Assembly: GCA_963666275.2 (NCBI GenBank)
Contig: CAXXOA010000001.1
Location: 2,176,001-2,240,000 of the forward strand
DNA from: Oceanispirochaeta sp.
Lineage (GTDB): Bacteria > Spirochaetota > Spirochaetia > DSM-2461
Direction of reading: 5' to 3'
Length of the DNA: 64,000 bases
Shown here piece by piece: positions 6,893 to 49,169 of the stretch. The translations under genes were made by a program, and so were the position numbers. Every line of letters begins with the position of its first letter. Position 1 is the first letter of the stretch. The notes under the pieces are model-generated. The model searched no databases, was not told the origin of the DNA, and saw only the letters and a program-made list of their open reading frames with translations.

Positions 6893-7549
6893 TCACCCCT
6901 GCCCTAAGGCCATCTTATCCGCCTCATAATTGGCATTAATCCGATCCATCCGGTTCATCTGCCCTGGCATCTCTTGCCTGCCGACTTGAGGCGGCGCAAA
7001 ACTCTGCCCACCGGCAGGCTGCCCCATAAAAGGAGACGCCCCGGAAGCAGCCCCCCGGCTCATTCCTCCCGGATGGGACAAAGTATCAGGGTTCCAGACA
7101 GAACCAGCCTGATTCTGCCTGACAGCTTTCACCGCGGCCGGTTTCCCATTGCGAAATGAAACCGTATTTCCTTGCCCTGAGAGTCCCTGAGTGTTTGGCT
7201 TGCGCAATGTCAGCCGGGAGGGAGGGGGAAATCCTTTCCCTGAAAGAGAATTACCTTTTACGGCTGTTGCAGTTTTCTCAACGAGTGTTTTTCCGGAGGG
7301 ACTTGAACTTGTGGAACCGGAAGAAATTGAAGCTTCAGGAAATACCAGATTCTCCACCCGGGATCCTGCGGCCTGAGGTTTCAATGCCTGAACACTATTC
7401 CTGGAAGGATTGATCCTGTACCCCAGGTTGCGGTAACCCTGACCGCCGAAGGAAGCGGTTGCCAAAGGGATCCGTTTGCTAACCCGGGGAATTCTGCTTA
7501 TTGGCGCTGCCTTTGGTGACGTCATACCGGGCAACGCCCTCCATTCCAC
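6893..7549 (-). pseudogene. Orphan 3' fragment of the 1087-aa tape-measure-like gene (repeat copy 4), no cassette downstream
   Basis: Translation nearly identical to residues near the C-terminus of 16144..19407; ends at MALGQG* before the variable tip. Confidence 0.85.
6896..7530. repeat. Direct repeat of 16277-16910
   Basis: Nucleotide-level near identity by eye. Confidence 0.9.
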
Positions 7550-7736
7550 CTACTTACTCTATAGCTTTTGCTATCAGCGGTTGCTTCATAAGATCCAATT
7601 TACCTGCAAACCATTAGGGTTGTCTGGTACAATGCCTTTCTTATGATCAACTATTCTTTCAAATCCAGAAATGCTCCGTACATCCAGCCTTTGATATAGC
7701 TTTCTTTCAATACGATTTTAAAGCAATTCATAATTT

Positions 7737-8252
7737 CTAATCGTTATAGACAATCAGTTCTCGATCTGTCACATCAATAATTGATTCACTATCAGCATCA
7801 AAATAGTAAACAAGTCTGTAAGTGTCTATTGTTTCTTTTCTGAAAGGGGTATCCTCTGAAGTTATTACAGAAAGAAAATCAACGTGCATATCTTTAATAA
7901 ATCCTGACTGATTCCTTAAGTATTCATTTTCAAACATGGAAATAATTTTTATATCAACAAGACTCTCAACTCCATTATCAAGATGTCTGGTCATTACTAA
8001 AATAGAGCATTTTTTATAAACCCTACGATACCCTGAAAGGTCACTTTTTACATCTCCAACCGTAAAAGATCCAAAATCATTCAGAAAATTAGTGAAATCA
8101 CCAGAGATTTCCAAGCCGATAAGGGAAGTGAGACCTAATGTTTCTCCACTTTCTATAATCGACTTAAGCTTTAATTCCAAGTCCTCTACTGTCAAACTGA
8201 ACAGAAAATGGGTTATTAATAAGAACAGGGTAATAAAAGATATTTTTTTCAT
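7737..8252 (-). CDS. Exported protein, putative immunity for the M23 effector
   Basis: Signal peptide MKKISFITLFLLITHFLFS; directly downstream of the effector; AT-rich. Confidence 0.6.
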   Translation of the reverse strand: MKKISFITLFLLITHFLFSLTVEDLELKLKSIIESGETLGLTSLIGLEISGDFTNFLNDFGSFTVGDVKSDLSGYRRVYKKCSILVMTRHLDNGVESLVDIKIISMFENEYLRNQSGFIKDMHVDFLSVITSEDTPFRKETIDTYRLVYYFDADSESIIDVTDRELIVYND

Positions 8253-8263
8253 TTATACTCCTC

Positions 8264-9472
8264 TTACTGTATATCCGTTGGATCAACGTAATAACGATTA
8301 TACCGATTCAAAACATCTGCATCTGGAGTGTCTACAATAGAGGCATTATCTCTATCCACATAACGCACTTCCATATGAAGATGTGGTCCAGTACATGCCG
8401 TTCCTGTATCTCCCGCATTGGCAAGATGATCCCCAACTTTAACAGGATCTTTATCTTTAACTTTTATTGAACCTTTCTGAAGATGAAATAGATTAAACTC
8501 ACCCCCATCCTCCAAAGTAATTCTTATAAAATAACCCAATTTCTTATTATGTTTAGCCTCTTTCACAACCCCTTCCACAGGCGAATACACAGGCTGCCCA
8601 ATCGTCTTATTCTGATTATTTTCTCTCCAAACCCAATCCTCACCAGCATGGGGATACGAAGCATCATAAGGATCTGTTTCTGCCAAGAACCCACCGCCTT
8701 CAACGCGCTTCCACCCCGGTTCAAACTGCTTGTAATACTCCGCAACCTCATCAGGCAGTTTTATCCGCCTCACTTCATTTTTCGCCAAATTCTCCCTCAA
8801 ATCCCAATACCACCTATCCATATCGTGGATATTATCCGGATTCTTTGTTCTGAATCTCATACCGGCTTCCGTCATCAATCCTATAACATACTCATCCGTC
8901 AATTCAGCCCCATCCATAGCTCTTTCCAGAATTTCTGTCAGACCTCCCTGAATGGCATCTTTTCCGATTGTTTTCGTTCCATTATAGGATGACATAATCT
9001 CTCCATAAGAGTTCCGCAAATGACCGCCTCCATGAAACTCCAAATAGCCATCATCCGTTAAGAACCAATAGTTATTACCGTTTTCATTATTCGGTAGGAT
9101 ATTCTTCTCGTCAACATCAATAGCCAAATTCAGAAGAAAATTAACTTTGGGGTCAATTGTTTGCTGATAATGGGGACCAAGCTCCTCACGCACGATAGCG
9201 TCTGTGGGCTGAGGTATATCAAGCCCCAAAAGAGACATCCATTTTTTGGATAAATTGAGAACAGTCCGCAGTTGATTATAATCATAAGATTCGGATTCAT
9301 GTATAAAAGCGTTCAATCCGGTCCTGTCAAAATTGGAGGCAATAATCTTTATTTCATTTAACACAGTCTCTTTAAACTTTCCGGGCCTATTCCCATTTAG
9401 GACATCATGAAGAGTAGAAACAGCATTCACCATCATTATTTGAATATCTAATCTCGAATATCCGTCAACCAT
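8264..9472 (-). CDS. Putative CIS effector 3: shared N-terminal domain plus C-terminal M23 peptidase
   Basis: HAGED, VYSPVEGVV, LFHL, GDTGTACTGPHLHMEV M23 motifs; no signal peptide. Confidence 0.8.
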   Translation of the reverse strand: MVDGYSRLDIQIMMVNAVSTLHDVLNGNRPGKFKETVLNEIKIIASNFDRTGLNAFIHESESYDYNQLRTVLNLSKKWMSLLGLDIPQPTDAIVREELGPHYQQTIDPKVNFLLNLAIDVDEKNILPNNENGNNYWFLTDDGYLEFHGGGHLRNSYGEIMSSYNGTKTIGKDAIQGGLTEILERAMDGAELTDEYVIGLMTEAGMRFRTKNPDNIHDMDRWYWDLRENLAKNEVRRIKLPDEVAEYYKQFEPGWKRVEGGGFLAETDPYDASYPHAGEDWVWRENNQNKTIGQPVYSPVEGVVKEAKHNKKLGYFIRITLEDGGEFNLFHLQKGSIKVKDKDPVKVGDHLANAGDTGTACTGPHLHMEVRYVDRDNASIVDTPDADVLNRYNRYYVDPTDIQ

Positions 9473-9483
9473 AATCAGTCTCC

Positions 9484-10305
9484 TTATATCCCAAATATCT
9501 TTGTAATATGCTGGGCGACTTGGATCTTCTCATCTTCCGTTCCGTACATCATTTCTTCTTTAAAGTGATCCACAAGTTTCTCTTTGACTTCTACCAAGCA
9601 CTCCCGATACTCTTCCGTAGTCATTTCAATAACCTTACCTGACGGGCTTAAATACCGGTACATTTCAATAGGTTCGGATTCTGTAAAATCTTCCAGATCT
9701 TTATCCGACGCATCCTGTTCTGCAATCAGTTCTTTATTCTTGAAGACAAGATCATCCTGTTTCCATATCTCAAATAAGTCGCTATCTTCCGGATTATGTC
9801 CTGTCTGTCCTTCCAGTTTATAGGCTTCTTTTTCCGCTCCCGACACATCTTCCCGATAGGTCAGCCGCTGTCCTTTTTGGTTCTGCCTGACATGCTCTAC
9901 CTCATGCAGCAGGAGGGCTTCTCCTTCTTCTGTATGAGGGGCATAACTACCTGAGGAAAAATAGATATCCTTTCCGAAAGTCAGAGCATCCGCTCCAGCT
10001 TTGTGGGTGATTTCTTCCGCATAGGGGCCCGTGTGGATTTTCACTTCGGAAAGGTCTTTTCCATAAGTCAATAAAAAGAGGTTGATTAAAGCTGTATCCG
10101 GCGCAAAAATATGGTCATAAACCTCTTTTTTGGCTTCATATGAAGTGATCAGGCCATCTGGTTTAAACTCTTGATCCGGGTTCTGCATTCTGGAGTTATT
10201 GTTACCTGTCTTCTCTATTACATTAAGATAAGCCCCATTTGCCAATTCAAATAGATTCGTGAATTTATTATGCCAGGAAATTGTTACTTCTTGATTACCA
10301 CTCAA
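9484..10305 (-). CDS. DUF4157 (eCIS core) domain protein, copy 3
   Basis: DLSEVKIHTG...AGADALTFGKDIYF...LLLHEVEHVRQ. Confidence 0.9.
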   Translation of the reverse strand: MSGNQEVTISWHNKFTNLFELANGAYLNVIEKTGNNNSRMQNPDQEFKPDGLITSYEAKKEVYDHIFAPDTALINLFLLTYGKDLSEVKIHTGPYAEEITHKAGADALTFGKDIYFSSGSYAPHTEEGEALLLHEVEHVRQNQKGQRLTYREDVSGAEKEAYKLEGQTGHNPEDSDLFEIWKQDDLVFKNKELIAEQDASDKDLEDFTESEPIEMYRYLSPSGKVIEMTTEEYRECLVEVKEKLVDHFKEEMMYGTEDEKIQVAQHITKIFGI

Positions 10306-10835
10306 CTTTCTACCCTCTTGATATCTTCAACAATATTATGAACATCAATAGCAGTATATTTTTTTCTTTGGCTTACACTTCCCCCGGCATGCCCCACCGA
10401 ATGACTCTGCGTCTTGGCCAGCATCCTCTGCTCTCCATACTCACCCTGCCCCAAGGCCTGCTTATCCGCCTCATAGTTCGCATTAATCCGGTCCATCCGA
10501 TCCATCTGCCCCGGCATCTCCTGCCTGCCGAACTGAGGCGGCATAAAGCCCTGCCCTCCGGCAGGCTGCCCCATAAAAGGAGACGATCCGGAAGCAGCCC
10601 CCCGGCTCATTCCACCCGGATGGGACAAGGTCTCAGGGTTCCAGACAGAACCAGCCTCATTCTGCCTGACGGCTTTTACCCCAGCCGGTTTCCCATTGCT
10701 AAATGGAATCGTATTCCCTTGTCCTGAGAGTCCGGGAGTGTTTGGCTGTCCCACTACCAGCTTGGGCGAAGGGGTAAAACTTTTTCGGGAAAGTGAACCT
10801 CTTTTTTTTGGCAAAATCCCCGCAAGATGTTTCAA
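10302..10835 (-). pseudogene. 3' fragment of the tape-measure-like gene (repeat copy 3) with an alternative C-terminal tip
   Basis: QPNTPGLSGQG...HSVGHAGG matches the C-terminus of the 1087-aa protein; DNA 10381-10750 matches 16214-16583. Confidence 0.8.
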
Positions 10836-11013
10836 GTATGGGGGTAATCCTCCTGTTAACCGATCATTTGAATATTTTTAATTGCGGGGTCGGGCTATAC
10901 GTTTCAATTCGCTTAATCGGTACGCTTTTCGGACTACCTCCGGGCCGCCCTGCGTACCTGGCTCATTTTCACTACTATCCCTTTTTAGTGTTAATTTTTT
11001 ATTTACCTGAAAA

Positions 11014-11178
11014 TTACTTCTGACTAAGAAAAGCTCTGATACTGGATTCAAAATCAGGTAATTCCCATTTTATCGCCATGTCTAAAGGAGTTTCTCCATT
11101 ATTATTTTCTTTCTTAGAGAAAAGATTATCCTCTACTAGATATTGGAGTATTTCATTGTTTTCATAGCCTACGGCAAA
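11014..11178 (-). pseudogene. Ankyrin-repeat gene remnant (3' end only)
   Basis: Hand translation FAVGYENNEILQYLVEDNLFSKKENNNGETPLDMAIKWELPDFESSIRAFLSQK*; no start codon ahead of the repeat. Confidence 0.65.
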
Positions 11179-11951
11179 CCTGCAACATATACAACATATT
11201 TTGCAGGATAGTAATTACCAGTAGACCCAACTCTAAAAAATTCGGTCCGATCATTATTGATTTTGTAAGCAGAGACAGCAACTGAATACAGTCCTTCAGC
11301 TATTATCGATTCTGTAATCATCAATTGATCACTTTCAACATTTCCCAGAATATCGTCATAATCAGTAAAACCCACAAATAGAGAATCTGGTAAACTAATG
11401 CGATTATCCTTTATCCCAATAATTGAAAAACTCTTATTGTTGTCCACTGATTTAAAAAACAAACTATAAAAGTCTACATTAGGAATATTATTAGTCCATA
11501 CAATTTCCAAGTTAGCGGAATCATTACGTTCCGTAGGATAATCAGTAAGCTCTATCTCATTATATATAAAAATAGTATTTGTCTCTATTTTATGTTTAGA
11601 AATAATAAAACTATCAAAACTTCCATATATAATTTTGGGTGAAGTAAGAGTATTTTCTGGATGTGAATATTGCCAGATTGGAAAATCTGGAGAAACATCA
11701 ATAGTTAAATCTATTATATCATTTTCATCTATTTTGACAGAAAAGCTATTGTTTTTATCCGTCTTTACATCGCACCCAGAGAATCCTTGTGAATTCTTTA
11801 CTCTGTATGAAATATGCAATGGGAAATCTTCAACATTTCCATAAGTTTCTACAGTCCCTTTGACAGTTGTGAAATTGCAACTTAGTAATATTAGAGGGAA
11901 TAATACAAATAAATATTTTTTCATATTAAAATCAAACTTGTCATTCTTCAT
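11169..11951 (-). CDS. Lipoprotein, putative immunity for effector 2
   Basis: MKKYLFVLFPLILLSC lipobox; overlaps the effector stop; AT-rich. Confidence 0.6.
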   Translation of the reverse strand: MKNDKFDFNMKKYLFVLFPLILLSCNFTTVKGTVETYGNVEDFPLHISYRVKNSQGFSGCDVKTDKNNSFSVKIDENDIIDLTIDVSPDFPIWQYSHPENTLTSPKIIYGSFDSFIISKHKIETNTIFIYNEIELTDYPTERNDSANLEIVWTNNIPNVDFYSLFFKSVDNNKSFSIIGIKDNRISLPDSLFVGFTDYDDILGNVESDQLMITESIIAEGLYSVAVSAYKINNDRTEFFRVGSTGNYYPAKYVVYVAGLP

Positions 11952-12751
11952 TTTATAGACGGCGCAGCCCCAGAGATTGCGTCAACTCCTTGATATGGAA
12001 AGATAATTTTTTTCAGTTCATCTTTTGATAATATTTCAGTCAAAGCATCCGCCATTAAATCATGATCATTAAATAATAATCTTTTTGCAATTTCGCTATC
12101 TGTAATCCTAGTCCATTCAAAATCTGGTTGATTCAAAGCGGCACCTTCTCCATCCCCTGGTAAATATTGTTCAAGAGTCCAACCTGTTATAGCGGTTTTG
12201 TTTCTATTAGAATATACTGTAATTCTTAACTGCCCCCATCCACCTTCTATTGCATCGGTAATACTGTGAGCTTTTGTACCAGCTCCAGAGTCATCAATAC
12301 CAACAGGTAAGCATCCTTCAATTACCCGTGCAATGACTGGATATTCTGATTCTATTACTTCAGAAGGGAACTGGAGCCTTGTATTATTATTTGAAATATT
12401 TTGGTGCCTAACATATGGATTCCCATATGAATCATTAAAATATTGTATTAACCCTTTTGTTGGTAAATCGCGCATAGAAACATCGCAAGGATTTGATAAC
12501 TTTAAGTAATTTGATTGAGCTGGATTAATACCAATAAGATGTAACCAATACACACAAACTTTCTGAATCTCATTTAATTCATGATTTCCATATTTAGAGA
12601 ATTCTTCGAAGAAATCATTAAAATTGAAATTCTTGAGCTTACCTTTTAACTCTTTATTATTCGGGTTCTCTTCTTGCCCTCCAAAAATTTCCAAAATGGA
12701 TCTATATGTTGATTTGGCAAGGTCTTTAATCTCATTTTCTTGATTCCCCAT
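11948..12751 (-). CDS. Putative CIS effector 2: shared N-terminal domain plus unrecognised C-terminal domain
   Basis: N-terminal ~80 aa align with effectors 1 and 3; same position in the cassette. Confidence 0.65.
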   Translation of the reverse strand: MGNQENEIKDLAKSTYRSILEIFGGQEENPNNKELKGKLKNFNFNDFFEEFSKYGNHELNEIQKVCVYWLHLIGINPAQSNYLKLSNPCDVSMRDLPTKGLIQYFNDSYGNPYVRHQNISNNNTRLQFPSEVIESEYPVIARVIEGCLPVGIDDSGAGTKAHSITDAIEGGWGQLRITVYSNRNKTAITGWTLEQYLPGDGEGAALNQPDFEWTRITDSEIAKRLLFNDHDLMADALTEILSKDELKKIIFPYQGVDAISGAAPSIK

Positions 12752-12802
12752 TATATCTCCTTGTAAATATCGTAGACAGTCTGTTGGTGGGATGGATAAA
12801 AC

Positions 12803-13606
12803 CTAGCTTTTAAAGATCTTCATCATTTTATTTATGACTTCAGTTTTCTCTTCATCAGAACTGTACATCATAGATGTCTGAAATTGGTCTTCAAGTTTTT
12901 CCTTTATGATCTTTAATGAGCTTTTATAGTCTTTTTCTGACAATTCATGGACTCTTCCGGATTGACTTACATAGCGATATGTCAAAGGTTCATTGTGAGA
13001 AGAGAAATCTGCCAAGTCTTTATCAATAATATCCAGTCCATTCGTCAAATCCTGATCTTTAAAGATAAGATCCTTCTGTTTTTGGAGATCAAACAGTTCT
13101 CTATTCTCAGTATCGATATCTGATAAACCTTCCTGACTATTGGCCTGTTTTTCTGCCTTATCGATATCTTCTTTATATATGTGACGATCCTGTCTACGAT
13201 GCTGCTCAACATGTTCAGCTTCATGCATCAGCAATTGTCTGCCGTATTCAGTATCCGGAGAAAAGCTTCCGGATGAAAAATATATATTCTCACCCATTGT
13301 CAATGCATCTGCACCAGCCTTGTGAGTGATCTCCTCGGCAAAAGGACCTGTATGGATTTTCACATGAGACAGATCACTTCCATAACGGATGAGAATCTCA
13401 TTTATCAAAGAGCTATCAAGCGCATGTATTCGGTCTAATCGCTCTTTTTTCATTTCATAGAGACTTATCAAACCTTCAGTTCTTAGCTCATTATCCGGAT
13501 TCTGCATTCTAGAGTTTTTGGTTGTTGCATCGCTAGATGGTAACAGATAATGCATGGTTACCAGTTCAAGAAGATTTATGAATTTTCCATAAGATTCTTG
13601 TCCCAT
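12803..13606 (-). CDS. DUF4157 domain protein, copy 2
   Basis: DLSHVKIHTG...AGADALTMGENIYF...LLMHEAEHVEQ. Confidence 0.9.
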   Translation of the reverse strand: MGQESYGKFINLLELVTMHYLLPSSDATTKNSRMQNPDNELRTEGLISLYEMKKERLDRIHALDSSLINEILIRYGSDLSHVKIHTGPFAEEITHKAGADALTMGENIYFSSGSFSPDTEYGRQLLMHEAEHVEQHRRQDRHIYKEDIDKAEKQANSQEGLSDIDTENRELFDLQKQKDLIFKDQDLTNGLDIIDKDLADFSSHNEPLTYRYVSQSGRVHELSEKDYKSSLKIIKEKLEDQFQTSMMYSSDEEKTEVINKMMKIFKS

Positions 13607-13607
13607 A

Positions 13608-13973
13608 TTATGACTCCCTGTTTAAATCATCCAAGACATCATAAATAAATACACTTTTAGTATTTAGTCTTCTTGATCCAGTTCCCTCAGCATGCCCCAC
13701 CGAATGACTCTGCGTCTTCGCCAGCATCCTCTGCTCCCCTTGCCCCAGTGCCATCTTATCCGCCTCATAATTCGCATTAATCCGGTCTATCCGGTTCATC
13801 TGCCCCGGTATCTCCTGCCTGTCGACCTGAGGCGGCACAAAACCCTGCCCAGCGGCAGGCTGCCCCATAAAAGGAGACGCCCCTGAACCAGCCCCCCGGC
13901 TCATTCCGCCCGGATGGGACAAAGTATTAGGATTCCAGACAGAACCAGCCTGATTCTGCCTGACAGCTTTTAC
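13608..13973 (-). pseudogene. 3' fragment of the tape-measure-like gene (repeat copy 2) with an alternative C-terminal tip
   Basis: DNA 13690-13973 matches 16220-16512 with a 9-bp deletion (GQGEQRM vs GQGEYGEQRM). Confidence 0.85.
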
Positions 13974-14016
13974 TGAGAATCATAAAATCCATATTAGTGG
14001 AGAATTCGAAGTGTTT

Positions 14017-14553
14017 TTATTTTAGCTCTGATAGTTGATCATGAAGAGAATGCCATCTATTATCTGCCAAGTCATGCTTATCAACCCATTGTAAAGTTTT
14101 TTGAATTGAAGCAATCTTCCAAAATGGATCTGAATAATCAAGTATTAATAAATCTCCGGTAGATTTGGATAAATAATATTTTCTAGAAAAGATTAATGAT
14201 TCTTTAGAAAAGATATAATCTTCGACATTTCCTAATGTCTCAAAATTTACAGTAACAACACAGATTTCCTCTTCTATTGGTTCCATTAAATTAATATTCA
14301 TTTTCATAGTTTCAATATTGGTTATTTTAAAATGACTAGTTACGACATGAATACTGTTTTTATCTCCTGGTGGAATAGCTATATCTGGGTGATAATAATC
14401 AACAACTGTATAATAATAATCAATGCCGGCTTCAAGCCTTTTATATATATGATTAGACACAATTTTTTCAGCCTGAAATTCCTCACCACTATAAGAGAAG
14501 AAATTAGTAAAAACTAAGAAAATCAAACCAAATAGTTTACTCTTAAAATACAT
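14017..14553 (-). CDS. Exported protein, putative immunity for the NlpC/P60-like effector
   Basis: Signal peptide MYFKSKLFGLIFLVFTNFFSYS; overlaps the effector stop. Confidence 0.6.
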   Translation of the reverse strand: MYFKSKLFGLIFLVFTNFFSYSGEEFQAEKIVSNHIYKRLEAGIDYYYTVVDYYHPDIAIPPGDKNSIHVVTSHFKITNIETMKMNINLMEPIEEEICVVTVNFETLGNVEDYIFSKESLIFSRKYYLSKSTGDLLILDYSDPFWKIASIQKTLQWVDKHDLADNRWHSLHDQLSELK

Positions 14554-19415: not shown

Positions 19416-19625
19416 CTATCTGGTTTGGTCTGCCCGAAGGGCTTCTACATAGTTCCTGGTATCAGAATTGATCCGGTTGTTGATCTTTTCCAGCTCAGCA
19501 AGCCAGCGCCGCCGTTCGTTCCGGCTCATATCCAGGACATCCCGTCGGCTCCAGTGAAAGTAGTAGGCCAGGTATGCCGTCTCCCCGTAAATATCTCCGG
19601 AAAGACGGCTTATACTTCCCCCGGG
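19416..19625 (-). CDS. DUF6760-like domain, probably the -1 frameshift extension of the tail chaperone
   Basis: YGETAYLAYYFHWSRRDVLDMSRNERRRWLAELEKIN; no start codon at the junction; lies in the -1 frame. Confidence 0.75.
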   Translation of the reverse strand, partial: PGGSISRLSGDIYGETAYLAYYFHWSRRDVLDMSRNERRRWLAELEKINNRINSDTRNYVEALRADQTR

Positions 19626-39452: not shown

Positions 39453-39765
39453 GAAAGGCAACTCCTTCAATCAATAAAATACGTTGTGTTATTTTTAAGA
39501 ATGAATTGAGAATTGTAAAGTAGCCTTTCAGTGCCATTTTCTGTAATACATTTCCCATATATCTACTACTTAAAGTATTTTTTTGTTTATTTATAACACT
39601 CAAATACTACTTTCAGGGCTTTTCAGTTATATGTAAATTGGGTTTTATTTTTAAATTCATAAATTATCATTGATATATTTATAAAATCCTGTATTAATGT
39701 TGTATGTTATTCAGATAACAAGAGATTATTTCAGTACGAGGATTATCAGAAAACAGGTAAAAAAA
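39453..39765. promoter_or_regulatory. AT-rich divergent promoter region of the two CIS operons
   Basis: Intergenic and AT-rich between head-to-head operons; exact boxes not assigned. Confidence 0.5.
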
Positions 39766-40389: not shown

Positions 40390-40408
40390 GTTTCAGGAGG
40401 TTTTCATA

Positions 40409-41041: not shown

Positions 41042-42927
41042 TGGCCTGGGGATTCAGCACTATACTGGAAGAGTTTAAACAGGATTACTATGACCCTACC
41101 GATCCCATTGACCGGATGGTATACGAGGAAAACCAGAGGAAACAGAACTTCTCCTTCGGGATCGTTACGGATAATCAGGACCCGGACAAACGGGGGCGTA
41201 TCAAAGTTCACTTACCCATGATTGCCAAAGACTACATCAGCAGATGGATCTGGATATTCCGCCCCTACGGGGGAGATAACAAGGGGATCTGGGCCCTGCC
41301 TGATATCGGTGATCAGGTGATGATCGCTTTTATCAGAGGCGATATCCATCACCCCGTCTGCCTCGGTGGAATGTATACTCCGAGGCACAGGCCTCCGATC
41401 AAAGACAATCCGGACAACAATATCAAAGCCATCAAAACCAAAGGCTGTTACCTTCTTATGGACGAGACTCCCGGAGAAGAGCGGATGGAAGCCTCCCTCA
41501 AGGACGGACAGATCCGCGTGGTGATCGATACCAAGGGCGTGCATCTGACCAATGAATTGGGAGGTATCGATATCCAGTGCCGGAAACTGACCATTGCCGG
41601 AGGGGCAGTCCAGTTTCAGACCGAAAAAGACCTGAGCCTCAAGACAGGTGGAAATCTGACCATGGAATCCCAGAGCACCCTGGCCCTCAGCGCTGGCGGA
41701 GAGATTACCATAAAGGGTAGCTCTGTCGACCTGAAAGGCAGCACGGGAGTCACCGCCGAGGGCAAACAGATAGCCAAGGAGAGTGATCCTGTAGCGGGTA
41801 TGGACCTGCACGACATAGAGGTTCCCTCCAGCAAAGGAACCCAAAAAGTCCCGGCTATCCCCCACCCTTATATGGGAAAACTGGTAGATAAACTGAGCGG
41901 CGATGTTTCTGTAGGCGGCAAAGCCGCAGCTACACAGGGCTCGAAAAGTGAATTCGGTGCTCCCGGTCATTTCCCGATGCTCCCGGGAATCAAGTTTTCC
42001 AGCAATCCCGACAATATGGGAGAGGTCACAGGCGGCTGCATCGACAGCGTAAAAATCAATGGCAACCCGGCGGCAGTTTTAGGCAGCACGGTCAGCACCT
42101 GTGACGATGCGGGCCAGAGCGACCACTGTACGGTAGTCGCACCCGGCACGGTAGTCACCTTCCCCATCCAGTACCCCGGGCAGGACCCGGAGCAGTACAA
42201 ACGGGACGGCGGATTGCCGATCAATGTGTCAAACCCTGCAGTGTATACTCCGGAAGATATTGCCTACAGGGATCAGCCCAAGAGCCTGACCGCCCTGCAG
42301 TGGAGTGCCAGCGAGGTCAACAAAGGCGAAGAGGTTACCCTCAGCTGTTCCACCAGCGGAGTGAAAGACGGTGCGGGGGTGATGTTCAGTATCTATCCCG
42401 AAGGGGCGAACACGGAGGTTGATCCGCCTTTGATGGATATCAGGGGCAAAAACAAAGGCAGCCGGGCTGAGGTGAAGTGGATTGCCAAAGACATTCGCAA
42501 ACCCGACGGGGATCAGCCTATGAAGTGGTTCTTTACTGCCTGGACGCTGTATTGTCCGAAAGAAGAGAGCGGTGAGATTCGGGTGCTGAATCCCAGAGTA
42601 ATAGATATGGAGTGGGAGAAAGACGCTGTATTCTGGGGAAATGAAATTAAACTTATTATCAATTCTTTTGAAGCAAGTAATTCGTCTAAAAATTACTCTT
42701 TAGAATTATGGGAGCAGGATATCTCAAATCCCGATGATTTCATTAACAACCAGGAAATTTCGATAACTGATGATTCCTTTGAAATAACCTACACATTAGA
42801 CTTTGATCTATCCCTTGTATCTGATTTTAACAGTGAAAAAGAGTACCAGTTGTACTGCAGAATTCTTGATAAAGAAGGAAATGAACTAAAGACCTCCCCT
42901 ATTTGTGAAATGCATGGAGATTACTAA
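41041..42927 (+). CDS. gp5/GpV-PAAR fusion with C-terminal Ig/TTR-like extensions
   Basis: DNQDPDKRGRIKV, LPDIGDQVMIAF; PAAR-like D..AGMDLH..PHPY..VGGKAAA..INGNPAA..TCDD; extension with LWEQD..PDDF. Confidence 0.85.
   Translation: MAWGFSTILEEFKQDYYDPTDPIDRMVYEENQRKQNFSFGIVTDNQDPDKRGRIKVHLPMIAKDYISRWIWIFRPYGGDNKGIWALPDIGDQVMIAFIRGDIHHPVCLGGMYTPRHRPPIKDNPDNNIKAIKTKGCYLLMDETPGEERMEASLKDGQIRVVIDTKGVHLTNELGGIDIQCRKLTIAGGAVQFQTEKDLSLKTGGNLTMESQSTLALSAGGEITIKGSSVDLKGSTGVTAEGKQIAKESDPVAGMDLHDIEVPSSKGTQKVPAIPHPYMGKLVDKLSGDVSVGGKAAATQGSKSEFGAPGHFPMLPGIKFSSNPDNMGEVTGGCIDSVKINGNPAAVLGSTVSTCDDAGQSDHCTVVAPGTVVTFPIQYPGQDPEQYKRDGGLPINVSNPAVYTPEDIAYRDQPKSLTALQWSASEVNKGEEVTLSCSTSGVKDGAGVMFSIYPEGANTEVDPPLMDIRGKNKGSRAEVKWIAKDIRKPDGDQPMKWFFTAWTLYCPKEESGEIRVLNPRVIDMEWEKDAVFWGNEIKLIINSFEASNSSKNYSLELWEQDISNPDDFINNQEISITDDSFEITYTLDFDLSLVSDFNSEKEYQLYCRILDKEGNELKTSPICEMHGDY
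42055..42597. repeat. Direct repeat shared with 46706-47248
   Basis: Near-identical DNA by eye over about 540 bp. Confidence 0.92.
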
Positions 42928-42937
42928 GGATATGCCA

Positions 42938-44035
42938 ATGAAACAGAAGATCCTCATACTCTTATGGCTTATTGCCAATATCAATATTTTTTCAAATGAT
43001 CTCTTCACTCCCAAGATAAATCATGGGGAACTGATAGAACTGAATGTAAACACCATCGCTCAAACTCTGGGTATAAGTGAAGAGGACGTTAAGGCCCATC
43101 CCCCGGAGAAAGAGGGATTCGGTCCCATAGAAAGTTATGGGGAATATCATGAATTCTTTCAGATCCTATCTATGATACCCCGCGGTTTTTTCATACAGGA
43201 TATACCGGAAGAAGGGCTTACTTTCTATCGGGTAATGTATGAGGTGGAACAGCAACATGCCATTACCGATGAAGTACTCTGTTATGAGCGAATATTCTAC
43301 CAGGATAGAGACACGGGGGAAATTATTCTGAGTTATGAAGACTATATGAACTATAAAGCCAGAGGTTGGCAGTTAAGTACACCGGAAATTGAGAAGGGTG
43401 TAATGCTTATTGTCAGAAACGGCAGCTATGACGGTGTTATGGTTTACCGGTTGTGGTATGAGGATGTTTACGAAATGGAAGATCCTCCCCGGTATGAGAC
43501 AAAAAATAGGCATGAAGCTTTTGTATACTTTTTTGGTGATGGAGAAAAAACAGCTGTTCCCGATAACTTTGAAGACCCGGATATCCATATTACCGCATCC
43601 AATCCTCTTATAGACAGGGATGATAGATTCAAATACACCATACAAAACGCTTTCGATCAGAATCCGGCCACCAGTTATGTGGAGGATACGGAGGATGACT
43701 TAATGGAGGTAAGTATTTCTTTTTCTGACGAGTATTACAATGCTTTATTGGATAAGAATATTTCAATTGTATCTAGACGAATTATAAATGGATATGCTCA
43801 GGATGGAAATTTATATCAACTAAACAATCGTATTAAAAAAGAAAAAAGTTATGAGTTAGTAGATAATTTCCTAGATTATCAAATAATGCCAAGAAAATAT
43901 ACTGAACTTGGTGTTGGTTATAGAATAATCGTCAAAGACATATATAAAGGATCAAAATACAACGATACATGTTTAGCAGAATATGATTGGAAAATGAATA
44001 TTGGAGATTGGATTTTTGGAGGTTATGATGAGTAA
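42938..44035 (+). CDS. Exported protein with NADase-type glycan-binding C-terminal domain, putative immunity
   Basis: Signal peptide; ASNPL...NAFDQNPATSYVE...INGY...NNRIK...KGSKYNDTCLAE. Confidence 0.7.
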   Translation: MKQKILILLWLIANINIFSNDLFTPKINHGELIELNVNTIAQTLGISEEDVKAHPPEKEGFGPIESYGEYHEFFQILSMIPRGFFIQDIPEEGLTFYRVMYEVEQQHAITDEVLCYERIFYQDRDTGEIILSYEDYMNYKARGWQLSTPEIEKGVMLIVRNGSYDGVMVYRLWYEDVYEMEDPPRYETKNRHEAFVYFFGDGEKTAVPDNFEDPDIHITASNPLIDRDDRFKYTIQNAFDQNPATSYVEDTEDDLMEVSISFSDEYYNALLDKNISIVSRRIINGYAQDGNLYQLNNRIKKEKSYELVDNFLDYQIMPRKYTELGVGYRIIVKDIYKGSKYNDTCLAEYDWKMNIGDWIFGGYDE

Positions 44036-46460
44036 AGCTCATATCCGGAATCTACCTATCCCTTATTTTTCTCAGAGAGAAAATATGTATGAATGGAAAG
44101 AGAGAGAACCAAAGGAAATTTGGAGTGATGAACAGGAGAAAGACATCCCAAATCCAAATGCTGGTAATGTAATTTACTGGACAGCTGAGGATGAAGTAGC
44201 TAATGCAAACCATAAAGAAGGAACACCTAAAAAAACAGAGACCATGTCCCTTTGCAGTTGTAACATAACCTGTCTGGCAATGCTGCTTCAATACTGCGGA
44301 ATAACCGATGATACTCCTGACGATATAATGGAAAAAATCTTCTCCGCAGCTACGGATGAAGATAATGATGAATTAAGGGCTATCAAGGAAGAGAATTATT
44401 CACATGGGCCATCGAATGTATTAAGCATAAGATCCCACAAACGAATTGTAAAAGCCTTATATAATATCGATACGGTTGATTTAGGTTACTCCAGCAACCT
44501 GGAATACCTTAAGGAAACAGTGGCCAGCGGTTTTCCTGTCATGATTAGTTGTGGAATTCTTAGACGTCACACAGAATCATTCTACCAAAGCATTATTGAT
44601 GGAGCAAGTAACGCTCATCTATACTCATACTCCCATGATGGAATAAGAAATGTTCATGATGATTTACTCTCAATTTACAGGAACAATTATGGGACCAGCT
44701 ATGAGGAAGATCTTTCTGAAGCTCTGGAAGAATTAGAAGCTGCATCTACAGATGAAGAAATAAACACTGCCAATCAGAAAATTGAAACGATTGAGAATCA
44801 GCAGGAACAAGTAAAAGAAGAAGTTCTTCAGTACTGTCTTGATGATTATAGAACACACGGTCATTATATCGTTGTAAGAGGATTTACCGAGGATTCTGTC
44901 ATAATCAACGATCCATGGGGTGATCCAACAGATTTCAATGGCAATTTTCCCAGCGATGGGAAGGGAAATTACTACAACAGTTCCCCCTTTGGAGATAATA
45001 TTACCATTTCCCTTGAGGACTTTGAAAAACAGTATAATGCAGACGGTACTCTTTGGTCGTCCTTAGTAATTAGACATAATCTGTGGAACTTCGTATTTGC
45101 TTCAAATACGGATAGAAGAGTCGTCCCTCCGCAAACTCTTCTTAATGGTTTTTATGAGCAAGAAATCTATGAGTACGGGGGTTACCCCATGAAAAGGAGT
45201 AATCTCTGGCATAATGGGATTCACCTGAAAGCCGACAACATAAGAGGAGTCTATCCTATCGGTCCTGGTCAAATCATCGCCGCAAGGATTCTGGATGAAG
45301 ACTTAAGCAACCCGGACAATAATCCTGCTCCAATTAATGGTAATAGATGTTTTGTTCTGATAAAACATAATTTAAATATCAACAGTGAAATCAAATCTTT
45401 CTTTTCACTATATATGCATTTAAAACCTGAAGAAAATCTGGAATCGAAAATATCAAACTATCCGGTACAACCCCTGCAAGCGGATTGGTTGGAGGAGATA
45501 ATCTTTCGTTCTAAAAAAGTCATGAAAGTAAAAGATAGTAGGACTCCCTCCATCTTCAGTGTTGAAGATGATAGAAATCTTGGCTCATTTACAGCAGGAA
45601 CATTATTCCCCTATGAGAGCTGTGATGATCAAAAAATCTACTTCAATTTTGAAATATCTGGACAAACAAGAGAATGCTACTCCTTTATGACAGATGATTT
45701 CTATATTTATCCAAGTGCCTATAAAAGCAATTCAGAAGAGATTATGGATAAATATCAAAGTGTTCTTGATTCATTAGCCCAGGGCAGAACAACATATTTC
45801 ACAGAACTGCCTGATCCTGTAATAGAAGTGACCGCGTCCACATGTATCGGAAAAACTGGAGTCTTTGGTGGTTATAATGCAGAAAATAGAGGAATGATTC
45901 ACCTTGAAATATTCAGCGACGATATTATTATACCTCAATTTGATGAATATGGGTTTAATCCAGAGCCTATCTATCTTGAGGATTCACCTACTGCAATGTG
46001 TAACAGAGAAGAAATGATAGGTCTTTTTGATAAATTTGGCTTATACAACACCATTGCAGAAGGATCACGATTTATCCATCTACAGGATGGAATCATTTCT
46101 AAAGCGGAAATGCAGGCGTATTATAATCAGAAGCCGGCAATTCTGAGAAATATGATTTGCCAACATAAAAGTGAATGGTATGAAGGAATCAATTGGGAAG
46201 ATGAGTTAGCGAATGCGGTGGGAGTCCCTTTTGGTATTCCTTTAATCCATAATGTATTGGAAGACAAATTAATAGAAAACCTGCAGGAGTATATTAACAG
46301 AATTTATAACCCCTACAAATGGCTGAATGATGGAGATTGTTTGAATGCCATGAATCTGGAATCCTCTGATAATCTAGCAAACGGGTGTGCCACATACTAT
46401 CACCCTATAAAATTCCTTGAATGGCTTGTGGAATATCAGAACCAAGTTATTACAGATTAG
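44028..46460 (+). CDS. Putative spike effector: C39-like cysteine peptidase plus M23-like domain
   Basis: PYFSQ, CNITCLAM, GHYIVVRG, INDPWG; then WHNGIHL, LYMHL, IHLEIF, HKSEW, YYHPIKF; no signal peptide. Confidence 0.75.
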   Translation: MSKAHIRNLPIPYFSQRENMYEWKEREPKEIWSDEQEKDIPNPNAGNVIYWTAEDEVANANHKEGTPKKTETMSLCSCNITCLAMLLQYCGITDDTPDDIMEKIFSAATDEDNDELRAIKEENYSHGPSNVLSIRSHKRIVKALYNIDTVDLGYSSNLEYLKETVASGFPVMISCGILRRHTESFYQSIIDGASNAHLYSYSHDGIRNVHDDLLSIYRNNYGTSYEEDLSEALEELEAASTDEEINTANQKIETIENQQEQVKEEVLQYCLDDYRTHGHYIVVRGFTEDSVIINDPWGDPTDFNGNFPSDGKGNYYNSSPFGDNITISLEDFEKQYNADGTLWSSLVIRHNLWNFVFASNTDRRVVPPQTLLNGFYEQEIYEYGGYPMKRSNLWHNGIHLKADNIRGVYPIGPGQIIAARILDEDLSNPDNNPAPINGNRCFVLIKHNLNINSEIKSFFSLYMHLKPEENLESKISNYPVQPLQADWLEEIIFRSKKVMKVKDSRTPSIFSVEDDRNLGSFTAGTLFPYESCDDQKIYFNFEISGQTRECYSFMTDDFYIYPSAYKSNSEEIMDKYQSVLDSLAQGRTTYFTELPDPVIEVTASTCIGKTGVFGGYNAENRGMIHLEIFSDDIIIPQFDEYGFNPEPIYLEDSPTAMCNREEMIGLFDKFGLYNTIAEGSRFIHLQDGIISKAEMQAYYNQKPAILRNMICQHKSEWYEGINWEDELANAVGVPFGIPLIHNVLEDKLIENLQEYINRIYNPYKWLNDGDCLNAMNLESSDNLANGCATYYHPIKFLEWLVEYQNQVITD

Positions 46461-46672: not shown

Positions 46673-47593
46673 ATGATTACTGGCAGCAACATCAAAGCCA
46701 TCAATATCAATGGCAACCCGGCGGCAGTTTTAGGAAGTACTGTCAGCACCTGTGACGATGCGGGCCAGAGCGACCACTGTACGGTAGTCGCACCCGGCAC
46801 GGTAATCACCTTCCCCATCCAGTACCCCGGGCAGGACCAGGAGCAGTACAAACGGGACGGCGGTTTGCCCATCAATGTGTCAAACCCTGCGGTGTATACT
46901 CCGGAAGATATTGCCTACAGGGATCAGCCCAAGAGCCTGACCGCCCTGCAGTGGAGTGCCAGCGAGGTCAACAAGGGAGATGAAGTCACCCTGAGCTGTT
47001 CCACCAGCGGTGTAAGAGAGGGCGCGGGAGTGATGTTCAGTATCTATCCCGAGGGGGCGGATACGGCAACAGATCCCCCTTTGATGGATATCAGGGGAAA
47101 AAACAAAGGCAGCCGGGCTGAGGTGAAGTGGATTGCCAAAGACATTCGCAAACCCGACGGGGATCAGCCTATGAAGTGGTTTTTTACCGCCTGGACGCTG
47201 TATTGTCAGAAAGAAGAGAGCGGAGTTATACAGGTGTTGAATCCCAGGATAACAGATGTGTCATGGAAAAAGAAATCCTGTTTTCTGGGAGAGAAAGCGG
47301 AACTCACTATTAAGAGTTTTGAGATGAGTAATAAATCTCCTACAATCTCTATTGAACTTTGGGAAGAAGATGAGAATAGTCCTGATGATTTTGTACTTAC
47401 ACAGGAAGAAAAAATCGACTCTGACGAAATCTCAGTAACCATACCCTTTGATTTTTCACAGGAAGAACTGGAAAGACTCTCCGATTTTGATATGGACACG
47501 GAAGGTGATCTTGAAATATTTCCTGTTCTGAAATACCAGGATGAGAAACTGGACACGAAACCCGGAATAGTACGAATAAAGACAGGAGCCTGA
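46673..47593 (+). pseudogene. Duplicated 3' part of gp5-PAAR with an alternative last domain
   Basis: Begins mid-PAAR; near-identical for ~180 aa, then a diverged homologous domain (LWEED..PDDF). Confidence 0.8.
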
Positions 47594-47596
47594 GTT

Positions 47597-48751
47597 TTGA
47601 AAAAGTATTTTTTATTCTTATTACTTATGATCAGCACATACCTGAGCGCTACCACTTTAAACGAGTTTGTTCCCTACAATATGTATGACACGCCCCGGGA
47701 AGAGATAGAAGATTTCTACAACTTTGCCGTTGAGAATAATATTCCTACCGCGGGAATAACCACTCTGGATCAAATGCATGTTCTTGCCAGGGGAGTGAAA
47801 AAGCTCTTCCGTATATATAAGGAAGAGATAGGCGGACATACCTTCTATCACGCTTTCTATACAACAAGGCGTCACGGCCTTGCTCGAGAAAATGACCCCT
47901 ATTTTAGAGATGATATTACTGAGGACGATATAACTTGTGCAAGAATGATTGATCCCTGGGTGGATAATCTTTATGAATTTATGGATGACAAACCCGAGTT
48001 TGGCAAAATTGAAGATAATCCCTATCCAATGATTTACCAGAGGCTTTACCTGGAGACAGGGAATGGATTGAAATATCTGGATGAGGCGGAATATTTTCTT
48101 TCGTTCAACCGTCCGGGTCCCACAACAATTGGAATAGAAATTGGATCCCTGCAACCCTGGTCTCTGGAGGATGAATTTGGTTATTGGTCAGTTCTTTATA
48201 TTAAAAGTAAACAGTTAGGAATGTATGATTCAGTATCCTATGGACAATCTCATAGGGCCAAACGTGTTTACCTTGATGAGGAAGGTGAGAACATAGGACA
48301 GATAGATATTGAAGCCAGCAATCCTCTGATCGATTCCCAAAGACCTTTCCGCTATCTGATTCTCAACGCCTTCGATCAGAATCCGGCCACCAGTTATGTG
48401 GAGGATACAGAAGATGATTTGATGGACTTTGTAGGATTGTATTCAGATTCTTTACAAGTTTATCTACATAATAAAAAAACTGAATTAATAGGATTAAGAT
48501 TAGTTAATGGTTTTGCAAAAAATCAAAGACTATATTTTGAGAATAACATAATTACAAAAATTGGAAGTAATATCCTTAAAAAAACAATAGATTATCAGTT
48601 CATCAAGTATCCAGCACCTCAAATGTCTATTGGGATAGGATTTGGCGCAACAGAAATTAGTAAAGGAACAAAGTTTAATGACACTTGCTTAGCTGAGATT
48701 GATTGGCAACTAACAGATGGATCTTACCTTATAGGAGGTCGGTTTGAATAA
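47597..48751 (+). CDS. Exported NADase-type glycan-binding domain protein, putative immunity paralog 2
   Basis: Signal peptide; NAFDQNPATSYVEDTEDDLM identical to paralog 1, N-terminal part divergent. Confidence 0.7.
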   Translation: MKKYFLFLLLMISTYLSATTLNEFVPYNMYDTPREEIEDFYNFAVENNIPTAGITTLDQMHVLARGVKKLFRIYKEEIGGHTFYHAFYTTRRHGLARENDPYFRDDITEDDITCARMIDPWVDNLYEFMDDKPEFGKIEDNPYPMIYQRLYLETGNGLKYLDEAEYFLSFNRPGPTTIGIEIGSLQPWSLEDEFGYWSVLYIKSKQLGMYDSVSYGQSHRAKRVYLDEEGENIGQIDIEASNPLIDSQRPFRYLILNAFDQNPATSYVEDTEDDLMDFVGLYSDSLQVYLHNKKTELIGLRLVNGFAKNQRLYFENNIITKIGSNILKKTIDYQFIKYPAPQMSIGIGFGATEISKGTKFNDTCLAEIDWQLTDGSYLIGGRFE

Positions 48752-49169
48752 TTCTCGTATAAGAAATCTTCCAATTCCTTATTTTTCTCAACGGGAGAAT
48801 CTTTATTCTTGGAAACAAAGAGAGCCAGCATACAAAGGTATTGATGAAGTAACACAATTGCCAATTTCTAATCCCAATAAAGGTAACATCATCCAATGGA
48901 CATCAGAAGATGAAGCTATAGATCCAACCCATAAAGCAGGTACTCCAAAAAATCAAAGATCCCTGGCATATAGCAGCTGCAATATAACCTGTCTCTGTAT
49001 GGTGCTGAATTACCTGGGGATTTCCCATGAAACCCCGACTCAGATGCTTGAAAAAGCCTTTGATGTGAACGACCCCAAAAACACTGATTTTCTCAATCTT
49101 CTTAATGAAAGCGGATTAATCCTGAAACACAGGATTATCATCGGAAATGATATCTTTCACAAAGGTTGA
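48744..49169 (+). pseudogene. Truncated paralog of the C39-like effector
   Basis: IRNLPIPYFSQREN...SCNITCLCM present; His/Asp half missing; ORF reads on into the antisense udk 3' end. Confidence 0.8.

Follow-up and report, generated by a model that had tools for sequence, protein, structure and literature searches.

Contractile injection systems (CISs) other than the classical type VI secretion system (T6SS) operate in several modes, as particles released from the producing cell, as thylakoid-bound or cytoplasmic assemblies and, in archaea, as membrane-bound machines, and the way in which they choose and load their cargo is an open question. Here we describe a CIS locus of the spirochaete Oceanispirochaeta sp., contained in a window of 64,000 nucleotides (assembly GCA_963666275.2, contig CAXXOA010000001.1, forward-strand positions 2,176,001 to 2,240,000; the window is the whole stretch of DNA analysed, and coordinates below count from its first letter). 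The locus is probably a horizontally acquired island of ∼44 kb that encodes an antibacterial CIS aimed at the cell envelope, whose two polymorphic payload regions, one at the outer end of each of its two divergent operons, were assembled by recombination.

At the Rhs, CdiA and MafB loci, 5'-truncated copies of the 3' part of a conserved gene head additional toxin-immunity units, and the T6SS is known for auxiliary vgrG/PAAR clusters and for orphan immunity arrays that arise via sequential effector displacement, for example in Vibrio cholerae. The present locus resembles Rhs/CdiA/MafB in its truncated homologous fragments behind a conserved motif (three in the left array, one in the right) and in one effector domain common to Rhs tips; it differs from Rhs and contact-dependent growth inhibition (CDI) loci in that the toxin is not a C-terminal tip and the repeated gene, which has no toxin domain, encodes a structural component of the injector. 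Because its toxin, DUF4157 and immunity genes are complete open reading frames (ORFs) with their own starts, unlike the situation in Rhs/CDI, the downstream units need not be silent. An earlier first-pass annotation, made without database searches, had likened the units to Rhs/CDI-type orphan cassettes; the truncated fragments at their heads bear out that likeness, but the idea of a silent stock does not carry over. With the vgrG/PAAR clusters the locus shares an effector-specific spike C-end, an extra spike-effector-immunity island and old units decayed to immunity only; unlike in the T6SS, no TssC-type sheath was found, and an Afp15-class AAA+ ATPase, a tape-measure-like protein and DUF4157 are present.

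Among solved structures, sheath 1 (407 aa, 34236-35459; PF04984/PF17482) matched 8bky, the CIS of Streptomyces coelicolor, at E 5e-116, 9ezm at 2e-114 and 8bl4 at 1e-113, as against ∼1e-52 to 1e-45 for Pvc2/Afp, and Baseplate J matched 9gtp at E 3e-69 as against 6e-4 for Pvc11. By these pairwise E-values, the nearest solved lineage is that of the Streptomyces cytoplasmic CIS (type IId) and the haloarchaeal membrane-bound CIS, not the antifeeding prophage (Afp) or the Photorhabdus virulence cassette (PVC). The code 9ezm appears in the haloarchaeal study (PMC11566945). The S. coelicolor system gives the best sheath and baseplate J matches and, like ours, has no recognised tail fibre and has a gene for a bitopic membrane protein just after the baseplate genes. 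It acts on its producer (cell death, development), whereas here the host is diderm and cell-wall enzymes are arrayed with exported partners; in contrast to CisA, the adaptor candidate here has the opposite topology and other domains, with VWA outside and zinc ribbon inside, and is accompanied by an FHA protein (PMC12237407). The second-best sheath match belongs to the CIS of Halogeometricum borinquense ('archaeal T6SS'), an eCIS-lineage (extracellular CIS) machine of contact-dependent antagonism with DUF4157 proteins and toxin-immunity pairs in or near its cluster (PMC11566945). Unlike in our locus, its authors saw no tape-measure homologue and its anchor candidate is a six-helix membrane protein, and the text consulted does not describe repeated structural-gene fragments heading cassettes (PMC11566945).

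A tape-measure-like protein beside a small DUF4157 protein, found here in 15 of 15 loci, is also the arrangement of Sle1/Sle2 (Streptomyces lividans) and Tme (S. davawensis) when compared by description; there the tape-measure-like C-terminus is variable and DUF4157 contacts the spike or tube-initiator complex (PMC13277306, PMC11126660). The toxin or functional domain of Sle1/Sle2/Tme lies within the tape-measure-like protein, whereas here that protein ends in a ∼25-aa tail and the toxins are separate genes, and 'reconfigurable', as used of Sle/Tme, denotes an engineered domain swap and not natural orphan arrays (PMC13277306). Afp, PVC and AlgoCIS share with our locus gene families, 3'-end toxins, DUF4157 and a GerE-type regulator (PMC8213781, PMC11297309), and are set apart from it by much weaker sequence similarity, the lack here of recognised fibre or lysis genes, and cell-wall payloads with exported partners. 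DUF4157 has been described as an eCIS core domain beside toxins, some with immunity genes, alongside GerE regulators (PMC8213781), and as a possible trans-acting chaperone (PMC11297309); also published are tape-measure-like effector/DUF4157 pairs (PMC13277306, PMC11126660) and a haloarchaeal CIS, bound to the membrane and used for antagonism, that has DUF4157 toxins (PMC11566945). The first-pass remark that this combination had not been described was thus overstated, as DUF4157-linked toxins, immunity pairs and tape-measure/DUF4157 pairs were already known. A full-text search of mostly open papers, supplements aside, found neither a spirochaete CIS nor CIS cassette arrays headed by tape-measure or spike fragments, and the new part, not found in that literature, is the orphan-array architecture.

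The CIS genes form a left operon on the minus strand and a right operon on the plus strand, which diverge from 39470/39697 (ORF listing; Pfam, NCBIfam and PHROGs scans). Families matched include two sheaths, two tubes, a CIS_tube+LysM protein, a gpD-like hub, two gp5-like OB proteins (one with PAAR), gp25 and Baseplate_J, as well as gpI/Cis12-like and weak Cis13-like proteins, an AAA+ ATPase, a tail assembly chaperone, DUF6760 and three eCIS_core (DUF4157) genes. The sheath, tube, gp25, Baseplate_J, gpI-like and gpD/gp5 families exceeded the Pfam cut-off, but not the PAAR of the 628-aa spike (25.3 bits against 27), and the three copies of PF13699 (DUF4157; E 2e-19 to 2e-20) are the only ones in the whole genome. 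The gene set and layout therefore agree with the first-pass call of a complete eCIS-type set in two divergent operons, but 'complete' is slightly too strong because a tail terminator (DUF4255/Afp16) was not recognised; a candidate cap or terminator, a conserved 183-aa protein without family (35487-36038; 43-46% identity in three relatives), had no Pfam match even at E ≤ 1 and no PDB sequence match.

Downstream of the chaperone in the left operon, a 1087-aa protein (16144-19407) is labelled tape-measure-like by position, size and conservation. Its C-terminus carries the motif R..R.N.NYE.D...A...G.A.G, invariant in nine of nine aligned sequences from five genomes, followed by a cassette-specific tail of ∼25 aa. 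The 3' end of this gene occurs as four direct repeats spaced 2.5-4.7 kb apart, exactly four being found in a genome-wide search. A block of 239 nt common to the four copies (16276-16514, 13737-13975, 10443-10681, 6896-7134) shows 87.4-90.8% pairwise nucleotide identity, and the copies are 76-87% identical in amino acids (blastp); the block is followed by a conserved stretch and, beyond it, by ∼25 codons that are different in each copy. The fragments extend back to tape-measure residues ∼965, ∼925 and 832, growing longer with distance from the gene. Copies 1-3 each lead straight into a DUF4157 gene, then an effector without signal peptide, then a signal-peptide or lipoprotein partner. Cassette 1 (14017-16143; PF13699 E 2e-19) thus comprises DUF4157 (15313-16143), an NlpC/P60-CHAP-like effector (14543-15313) and a signal-peptide partner (14017-14553), and is followed by fragment 1 (aa ∼965-1087; 13608-13975). 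Cassette 2 (11169-13606; PF13699 E 3e-20) comprises DUF4157 (12803-13606), a Rhs-tip-type effector (11948-12751) and a lipoprotein partner (11169-11951), and precedes fragment 2 (aa ∼924-1087; 10302-10835). Cassette 3 (7737-10305; PF13699 E 2e-20, PF01551 E 8e-15), with DUF4157 (9484-10305), an M23 effector (8264-9472) and a signal-peptide partner (7737-8252), is followed by fragment 3 (aa 832-1044; 6893-7549), which ends 8 codons past NANYEADK; all three fragments were delimited by repeat alignment. Aligned from end to end, the DUF4157 paralogues share 48-51% identity (blastp), and HExxH is invariant in nine of nine aligned DUF4157 proteins. In a word-index protein search, effectors 1 and 2 and tape-measure fragment 2 hit nothing but proteins of the window itself.

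At the island end, a 409-aa lipoprotein without family (5517-6746; lipobox LTGC, N-terminus judged by eye) is possibly the product of an orphan immunity gene. The hairpin that follows it (5495-5474) is the only convincing terminator-like site of the left stretch, none being found between the left cassettes. A 47-60-nt element at 6830-6889 stands exactly at the abrupt end of the fourth tape-measure copy and has two more copies in the genome at 92-94% identity; it may be the end of a mobile element that caused the truncation.

In the right operon the repeated gene is the spike, a 628-aa protein with gp5 OB, beta-helix, PAAR and C-terminal extension (41041-42927; PF04717 E 2e-23, PAAR E 2e-5) whose final ∼110 aa are cassette-specific. 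The repeat (46703-47289 against 42052-42637, 90.8% over 587 nt) corresponds to spike residues ∼338-520 and belongs to an orphan 3' part of the spike-PAAR gene (46673-47593, equivalent to aa 329-628; repeat alignment and blastp), which over the final ∼110 residues is only about one-third identical to the spike. Between them lies right cassette 1 (42905-46460; PF25302, NF047619, PF13529), made up of a 376-aa signal-peptide protein that carries an NADase-type discoidin domain and of an 819-aa C39-like effector. Behind the orphan, right cassette 2 (47597-49169; PF25302, PF13529) is decayed, with an intact discoidin signal-peptide protein (384 aa) and a C39-like effector of which 141 aa remain, 50% identical to the start of the 819-aa protein and cut by the island edge at 49120. 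With four left copies and one right repeat, the earlier observation that later cassettes are headed by a duplicated 3' fragment of a structural gene is borne out. A genome search with the orphan further revealed a third spike copy on contig 2, which is full (580 aa, 90% aa identity over residues 1-518), has PAAR (34.6 bits) and ends differently, in a C-end with a SpaA/prealbumin-like match. This auxiliary module runs in the order spike, 777-aa effector, signal-peptide YARHG protein and two IS66 copies (L050, G000:C2:617000-636999, 7135-17417). The 777-aa effector shows NlpC/P60-like Cys/His motifs by eye and had no match to hidden Markov models (HMMs).

Comparison with relatives separates a constant core from variable cassettes. 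A congener (G004) without a sheath match has homologues of the flanking genes, udk and a 193-aa gene, 3.5 kb apart with ordinary genes between, and since these flanks adjoin so closely the stretch ∼5345-49119 of the window is taken to be a 44-kb island; its right edge (∼49120) cuts the orphan C39-like gene and overlaps the udk 3' end by 54 nt, and in G002 the system sits at another locus. Sheath 1 found matches at E ≤ 0.001 in seven of 41 genomes including its own (G000), five relatives having full-length matches of 82-91% identity and G016 only weak partial ones. The 23 core proteins that run from gp25 through the tape measure all occur, along with both gp5-like proteins, in the same order in three relatives (G001, G002, G014). 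Of the 11 cassette proteins other than DUF4157, by contrast, 10 had no match in these three genomes and one a partial match in G002. Behind the tape measure, each relative carries a single DUF4157 gene with a single, different effector-partner pair, and behind the spike, whose last ∼100 residues differ too, a further single and different pair. This is the outcome that the first-pass annotation had predicted for a synteny check, and it was obtained in three of three relatives.

The arrangement recurs more widely in the class, where PF13699 occurs in 21 of 401 genomes and the five multi-copy genomes tested all have this sheath lineage (76-81% identity). In G338, which belongs to another family, two 5'-truncated copies (91-97% aa identity) stand after a tape-measure-like gene of 1104 aa. 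Each heads a DUF4157 gene, an effector and a partner; one of the effectors has Ntox30 (E 3e-48), and one of the partners has the discoidin domain described above. G338 also has three full and two truncated spike copies, the truncated between the full, with DNA repeats of 85-94%. The G338 system lies on a 165-kb second contig (L025, L051), with the tape-measure array ∼60 kb from the sheath genes; a DDE transposase stands just upstream of the tape-measure gene, and the DUF4157 gene of the first cassette comes after, not before, the effector pair. A pattern made from the C-terminal motif of the tape measure picked out 51 stretches across the genomes searched; 15 of them were confirmed, 14 in spirochaete records and one in a Eubacteriales bin (record titles). 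A DUF4157 gene follows the motif on the same strand in all 15 (in L042 after 2.5 kb), and tape-measure-like and DUF4157 genes are adjacent in the window, G001, G002, G014 and G338. Related loci come from Treponema records of rumen and oral sources (record titles), and in Treponema lecithinolyticum (L041, L044) and a Treponema bin (L042, L047) contig pairs have ∼85-100 nt in common, up to and including the NANYEHDK codons, beyond which they diverge. At L029 (G246:C11, 5500-11000), two DUF4157 genes enclose several discoidin-type partner-like genes in a row, together with pieces of effectors but no fragment of the tape measure, which looks like an immunity-rich array of another style.

How the arrays arose can be read in part from the repeats themselves. 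The left copies are about equally distant from one another, with a proportion of synonymous differences (pS) of 0.22-0.31 and a ratio of nonsynonymous to synonymous proportions (pN/pS) of 0.09-0.30 (79 codons, six non-independent pairs), and for the right copies pS is 0.23 and pN/pS 0.15 (183 codons). The predominance of synonymous differences suggests that the fragments diverged within working genes of different lineages and were joined later, to which local duplication followed by drift does not correspond; the recombination-type reading of the first pass is thereby strengthened, the repeats being diverged alleles under purifying selection and not fresh duplications. The cassette DNA is AT-rich, with a guanine-plus-cytosine (GC) content of 0.33-0.41 against 0.52-0.53 for the tape-measure gene; across 8001-16000 and 42001-46000 the cassette values are 0.33-0.43 against 0.46-0.53 for the core, and the tape-measure fragments appear there as GC-rich islets. 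Both sides show a gradient of decay, from three complete units to a fragment and lipoprotein on the left, and on the right from one complete unit to a fragment with an intact partner and only the first 141 aa of an effector. Incoming alleles would recombine inside the structural gene's conserved 3' part, and every such exchange would set a new cassette beside that gene and displace the old 3' end and its cassette outwards, and the oldest units would decay to a fragment and an immunity gene. The same displacement mechanism has been proposed for Rhs/CDI orphans and Vibrio immunity arrays. The downstream DUF4157, effector and partner genes of the left array are complete ORFs, and the displaced cassettes may all still be expressed. 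The stretch was located, as contigs, in three sequencing runs of one sample, with no RNA run listed; these contigs break at each repeat, and the only two joints (9706>15766 and 15813>16214), with 24 letters on the shorter side and depth 2.6 in one contig of one run, were set aside as assembly noise between paralogues.

The two regions would serve two payload routes. A cassette of the first consists of the last ∼25 tape-measure codons, a DUF4157 protein with HExxH, an effector with a common N-domain of ∼85 aa and an exported partner, and the DUF4157 protein would couple the effector to the tape measure or the tube interior. In the second, a cassette brings together the gp5-PAAR spike's variable C-terminal domain, an effector and an exported partner, and here the effector would ride the spike tip as in type VI secretion. 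We infer these loading routes, as well as the target, the order of events, the firing mode and the immunity roles. Complex prediction without control runs, for DUF4157 protein 1 paired with the C-terminal 110 aa of the tape-measure-like protein, scored 0.27 and 0.21 against a mark of 0.32 and is taken as evidence on neither side as to binding; the predicted structure of the DUF4157 protein was poor, with a predicted local distance difference test score (pLDDT) of 51.4.

What the cassettes deliver appears to be directed at the cell wall. Effector 3 (8264-9472) matches M23 at E 8e-15, and peptidoglycan endopeptidase models match too; the 819-aa effector (44001-46460) matches Peptidase_C39_2 (PF13529, E 1.3e-12). 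These two families of the first-pass annotation are therefore sound. NlpC/P60, also named there, is matched by effector 1 (14543-15313) only below threshold, as is CHAP (E ∼0.005), and by eye we take the Cys and His motifs of this protein to be those of the NlpC/P60-CHAP fold; an 'M23-like' part of the 819-aa protein, likewise seen by eye, returned no family in the HMM scan and is unconfirmed. For effector 2 (11948-12751) no family was found, but its residues 89-248 are 41% identical to the tips of two YD/Rhs-type proteins, after their DPxGL-like motif (P0005/P0006, E 4e-30 and 2e-29). An Atlas look-up of effector 2 pointed to phage portal-like clusters at low recognition (1733) and was discarded. 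The three left effectors share only the N-terminal domain of ∼85 aa (29-34% identity), their toxin domains and partners being unrelated; the idea that this loading domain is common to left-array effectors of all genomes was dropped, since only the window's three are clearly alike (29-30%). A sequence search of the PDB gave nothing meaningful for effectors 1 and 2, the 819-, 519-, 183- and 1087-aa proteins or the DUF4157 profile.

Judged by eye, the partners begin with signal-peptide or lipobox N-termini and the effectors do not, as the first-pass annotation had it. On the established logic of amidase-immunity pairs in the T6SS, peptidoglycan effectors without export signal, paired with exported partners, would make immunity necessary only against injection by kin, which points to delivery into the periplasm of diderm neighbours, kin among them. 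The antibacterial role proposed at first pass is thus supported indirectly, in that cytoplasmic cell-wall enzymes are paired with exported partners and one effector domain is common to Rhs toxin tips.

Several points weigh against a recombination-built, antibacterial payload system. Two of the three left effectors have no significant family, and for the toxin domain of effector 2 Foldseek against the PDB was blank at E ≤ 0.001, with a weak model (pLDDT 61.7, from a three-row alignment). Signal peptides and lipoboxes were judged by eye from N-termini and not by a predictor. The 1087-aa protein had no family, PDB or Atlas match, which is why its label rests on position, size and conservation. 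In right cassette 1 the exported protein precedes the effector, opposite to the order in relatives, and because of this difference its immunity role is an assumption. The left cassettes, being complete ORFs with no convincing terminator between them, may, moreover, be one multi-effector operon in which the repeats are inert scars and nothing is switched, and no recombinant junction was well supported in the contigs of the three sequencing runs.

If the locus is indeed an antibacterial CIS of this kind, how it fires is a further matter, on which three accounts can be compared. Kinship with intracellular and membrane-bound CISs, the lack of recognised fibre or lysis genes and the conserved envelope proteins in the operon make cell anchoring, which the first pass had called probable, plausible as judged from sequence. 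In the fullest form of this account, which refines the proposal made above and may well be right while falling short of probable, the particle is held at the cytoplasmic membrane, as in the T6SS, and fires through the producer's own envelope on contact. Candidate anchors, all kept in three of three relatives, are the bitopic VWA/zinc-ribbon protein (395 aa) and the adjacent FHA protein (125 aa), together a candidate membrane adaptor or trigger (27623-29175; PF00498, PF00092 and zinc-ribbon matches, topology read from sequence by eye), and a 458-aa exported protein (signal-peptide-like N-terminus) and a 168-aa lipoprotein (lipobox LLSC), both without family (31923-33783). The FHA protein has an N-terminal zinc-ribbon-like CxxC pair, and its neighbour a periplasmic VWA and a cytoplasmic zinc ribbon. 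This pair recalls the Fha1/PpkA (VWA) trigger of the Pseudomonas T6SS, here without a kinase domain. Its genes directly follow those of the baseplate periphery, the slot of CisA in Streptomyces or of tail fibres in eCISs (PMC12237407), and the closest solved relatives are intracellular or membrane-bound (PMC11566945, PMC12237407). At 81-82% identity between species, the Cis13-like protein does not resemble a receptor-binding fibre of the variable kind, island scans found no lysis genes, and the auxiliary spike island and orphan units mirror T6SS genetics. On the other hand, no TssJLM or CisA homology turned up, no search having been aimed at CisA, TssJLM or ClpV; a diderm envelope with periplasmic flagella must be crossed, the FHA/VWA pair could be regulatory instead, and tail fibres of another type are possible.

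Somewhat less likely, and on balance doubtful, is that the locus is a classical eCIS whose particles are freed by lysis of the producer, bind other bacteria and inject the same payloads, with the hydrolase effectors perhaps aiding release. In its AAA+ ATPase, DUF4157, tape-measure-like gene, LuxR/GerE regulator and 3'-end toxins the locus has what is typical of eCISs, and the idea that toxins could assist lysis has been raised (PMC8213781); periplasmic immunity would, moreover, guard kin from free particles equally well. Set against this, no holin or dedicated endolysin was found among 44 island ORFs (Pfam) or 24 ORFs, 22 of them in the island (PHROGs), all of at least 80 aa, which agrees with the earlier statement that there is no lysis module, and no tail-fibre family was recognised in family scans of island proteins. 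The sheath and baseplate are also far closer to non-released systems than to Afp/PVC/AlgoCIS, and exported and membrane proteins are conserved within the structural operon. A prophage or tailocin was ruled out, as capsid, portal, terminase and lysis genes were not seen and an AAA+ ATPase and DUF4157 are present.

That the system instead fires inside its producer, as in Streptomyces, for regulated cell death or a developmental effect, so that the cassettes are not weapons against competitors, would fit the S. coelicolor origin of the closest solved homologues and the Streptomyces tape-measure-like/DUF4157 pairs that modulate producer physiology (PMC13277306, PMC11126660), but is very improbable, given that exported partners, cassettes replaced between species, persisting orphan units and a Rhs-tip domain are marks of inter-strain conflict and that peptidoglycan enzymes without export signal cannot reach their substrate from their own cytoplasm. 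Equally hard to credit is an origin of the repeats in local tandem duplication and later divergence, with no outside acquisition and no role for the fragments: their single orientation and 2.5-4.7-kb spacing and the full-length similarity of the DUF4157 paralogues (48-51%) would suit it, but the toxin domains and partners are unrelated between units, the copies are nearly equidistant (pS 0.22-0.31, low pN/pS) as if diverged in working genes, the cassette GC is unlike that of the core, and relatives have other cassettes at the same junctions.

The proposal of an antibacterial CIS with two recombining payload regions can be carried further, to a joint reading that is unlikely to hold in all its parts. 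According to it, diderm spirochaetes would have an antibacterial injector anchored in the membrane, and the tape measure itself would carry its payload. The ∼25-residue tail of the tape measure after NANYExDK...GHAxG would form, with the cognate HExxH DUF4157 protein, a matched interface for effector docking or processing, and the payload would be exchangeable only as tail, DUF4157, effector and immunity together; each cassette would bring its own tape-measure end because a change of payload needs this joint exchange. Firing would proceed via a non-TssJLM anchor or trigger (the FHA, periplasmic-VWA/zinc-ribbon, lipoprotein and exported proteins), and recombination between repeats would switch or prune the arsenal within populations.

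The remaining genes of the left operon, in order from its start, are a gp25-like baseplate wedge or sheath initiator (39033-39470; PF04965 E 2e-25), the 1006-aa Baseplate J/Cis11-like protein (36038-39058; PF04865 E 8e-16, TIGR02243 E 5e-85) and, past the 183-aa protein and sheath 1, tube 1 (33784-34212; PF06841 E 5e-23). The exported protein and lipoprotein are followed by a DUF1257 protein (31511-31912; PF06868 E 4e-15) and by the baseplate periphery (29184-31620; PF09684, TIGR02242, NF053768, NF053767), made up of the gpI/Cis12-like protein (298 aa) and the weak Cis13-like one (519 aa), whose CIS13_fam match is below cut-off (38 bits against 370). Beyond the FHA/VWA pair come sheath 2 (511 aa), tube 2 and a tube initiator-like CIS_tube+LysM protein (25027-27622; PF04984, PF06841, PF19266+PF01476), the gpD-like hub or VgrG N-half (23965-25014; PF05954, NF033848 E 3e-35), an NrdG-like radical-SAM activase (23414-23968; PF13353 E 4e-32, TIGR02491 E 2e-30, below cut-off) and the AAA+ ATPase of the Afp15/Pvc15 class (21848-23380; PF00004 E 8e-29). 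The activase, between hub and ATPase, is 49-58% identical in three relatives, and no glycyl-radical partner is evident in the locus. The genes leading to the tape measure encode a pentapeptide-repeat protein, a 160-aa protein, the tail assembly chaperone (243 aa) and DUF6760 (82 aa) (19416-21621; PF13599, PF20546, phrog_508 E 8e-9). The chaperone and DUF6760 ORFs (19416-20341, minus strand) overlap by 55 nt in different frames, as they do in relatives, which could be a gpG/gpGT-type programmed frameshift. On the right, a LuxR/GerE regulator (39697-40389; PF00196 E 2e-9) and a 240-aa gp5-like spike protein (40319-41041; PF04717 E 1e-16) precede the 628-aa spike.

The locus provides evidence, natural and comparative, that a single machine has two distinct cargo routes. 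For one of them it directs attention to the very C-terminal end of the tape measure, together with the DUF4157 protein beside it, as the interface that is exchanged. It also indicates that the orphan-module logic of Rhs, CDI and T6SS loci shapes CIS loci as well, and the junction motif is a simple handle with which to mine CIS effectors. A search for the canonical T6SS sheath (PF05943) had no match in this genome (G000, 97% complete; the only one so searched, with a positive Escherichia coli control), and the system may be a contact weapon of spirochaetes; if it is indeed fired from the cell through an anchor and trigger of the kind proposed above, spirochaetes would gain a functional equivalent of type VI secretion.

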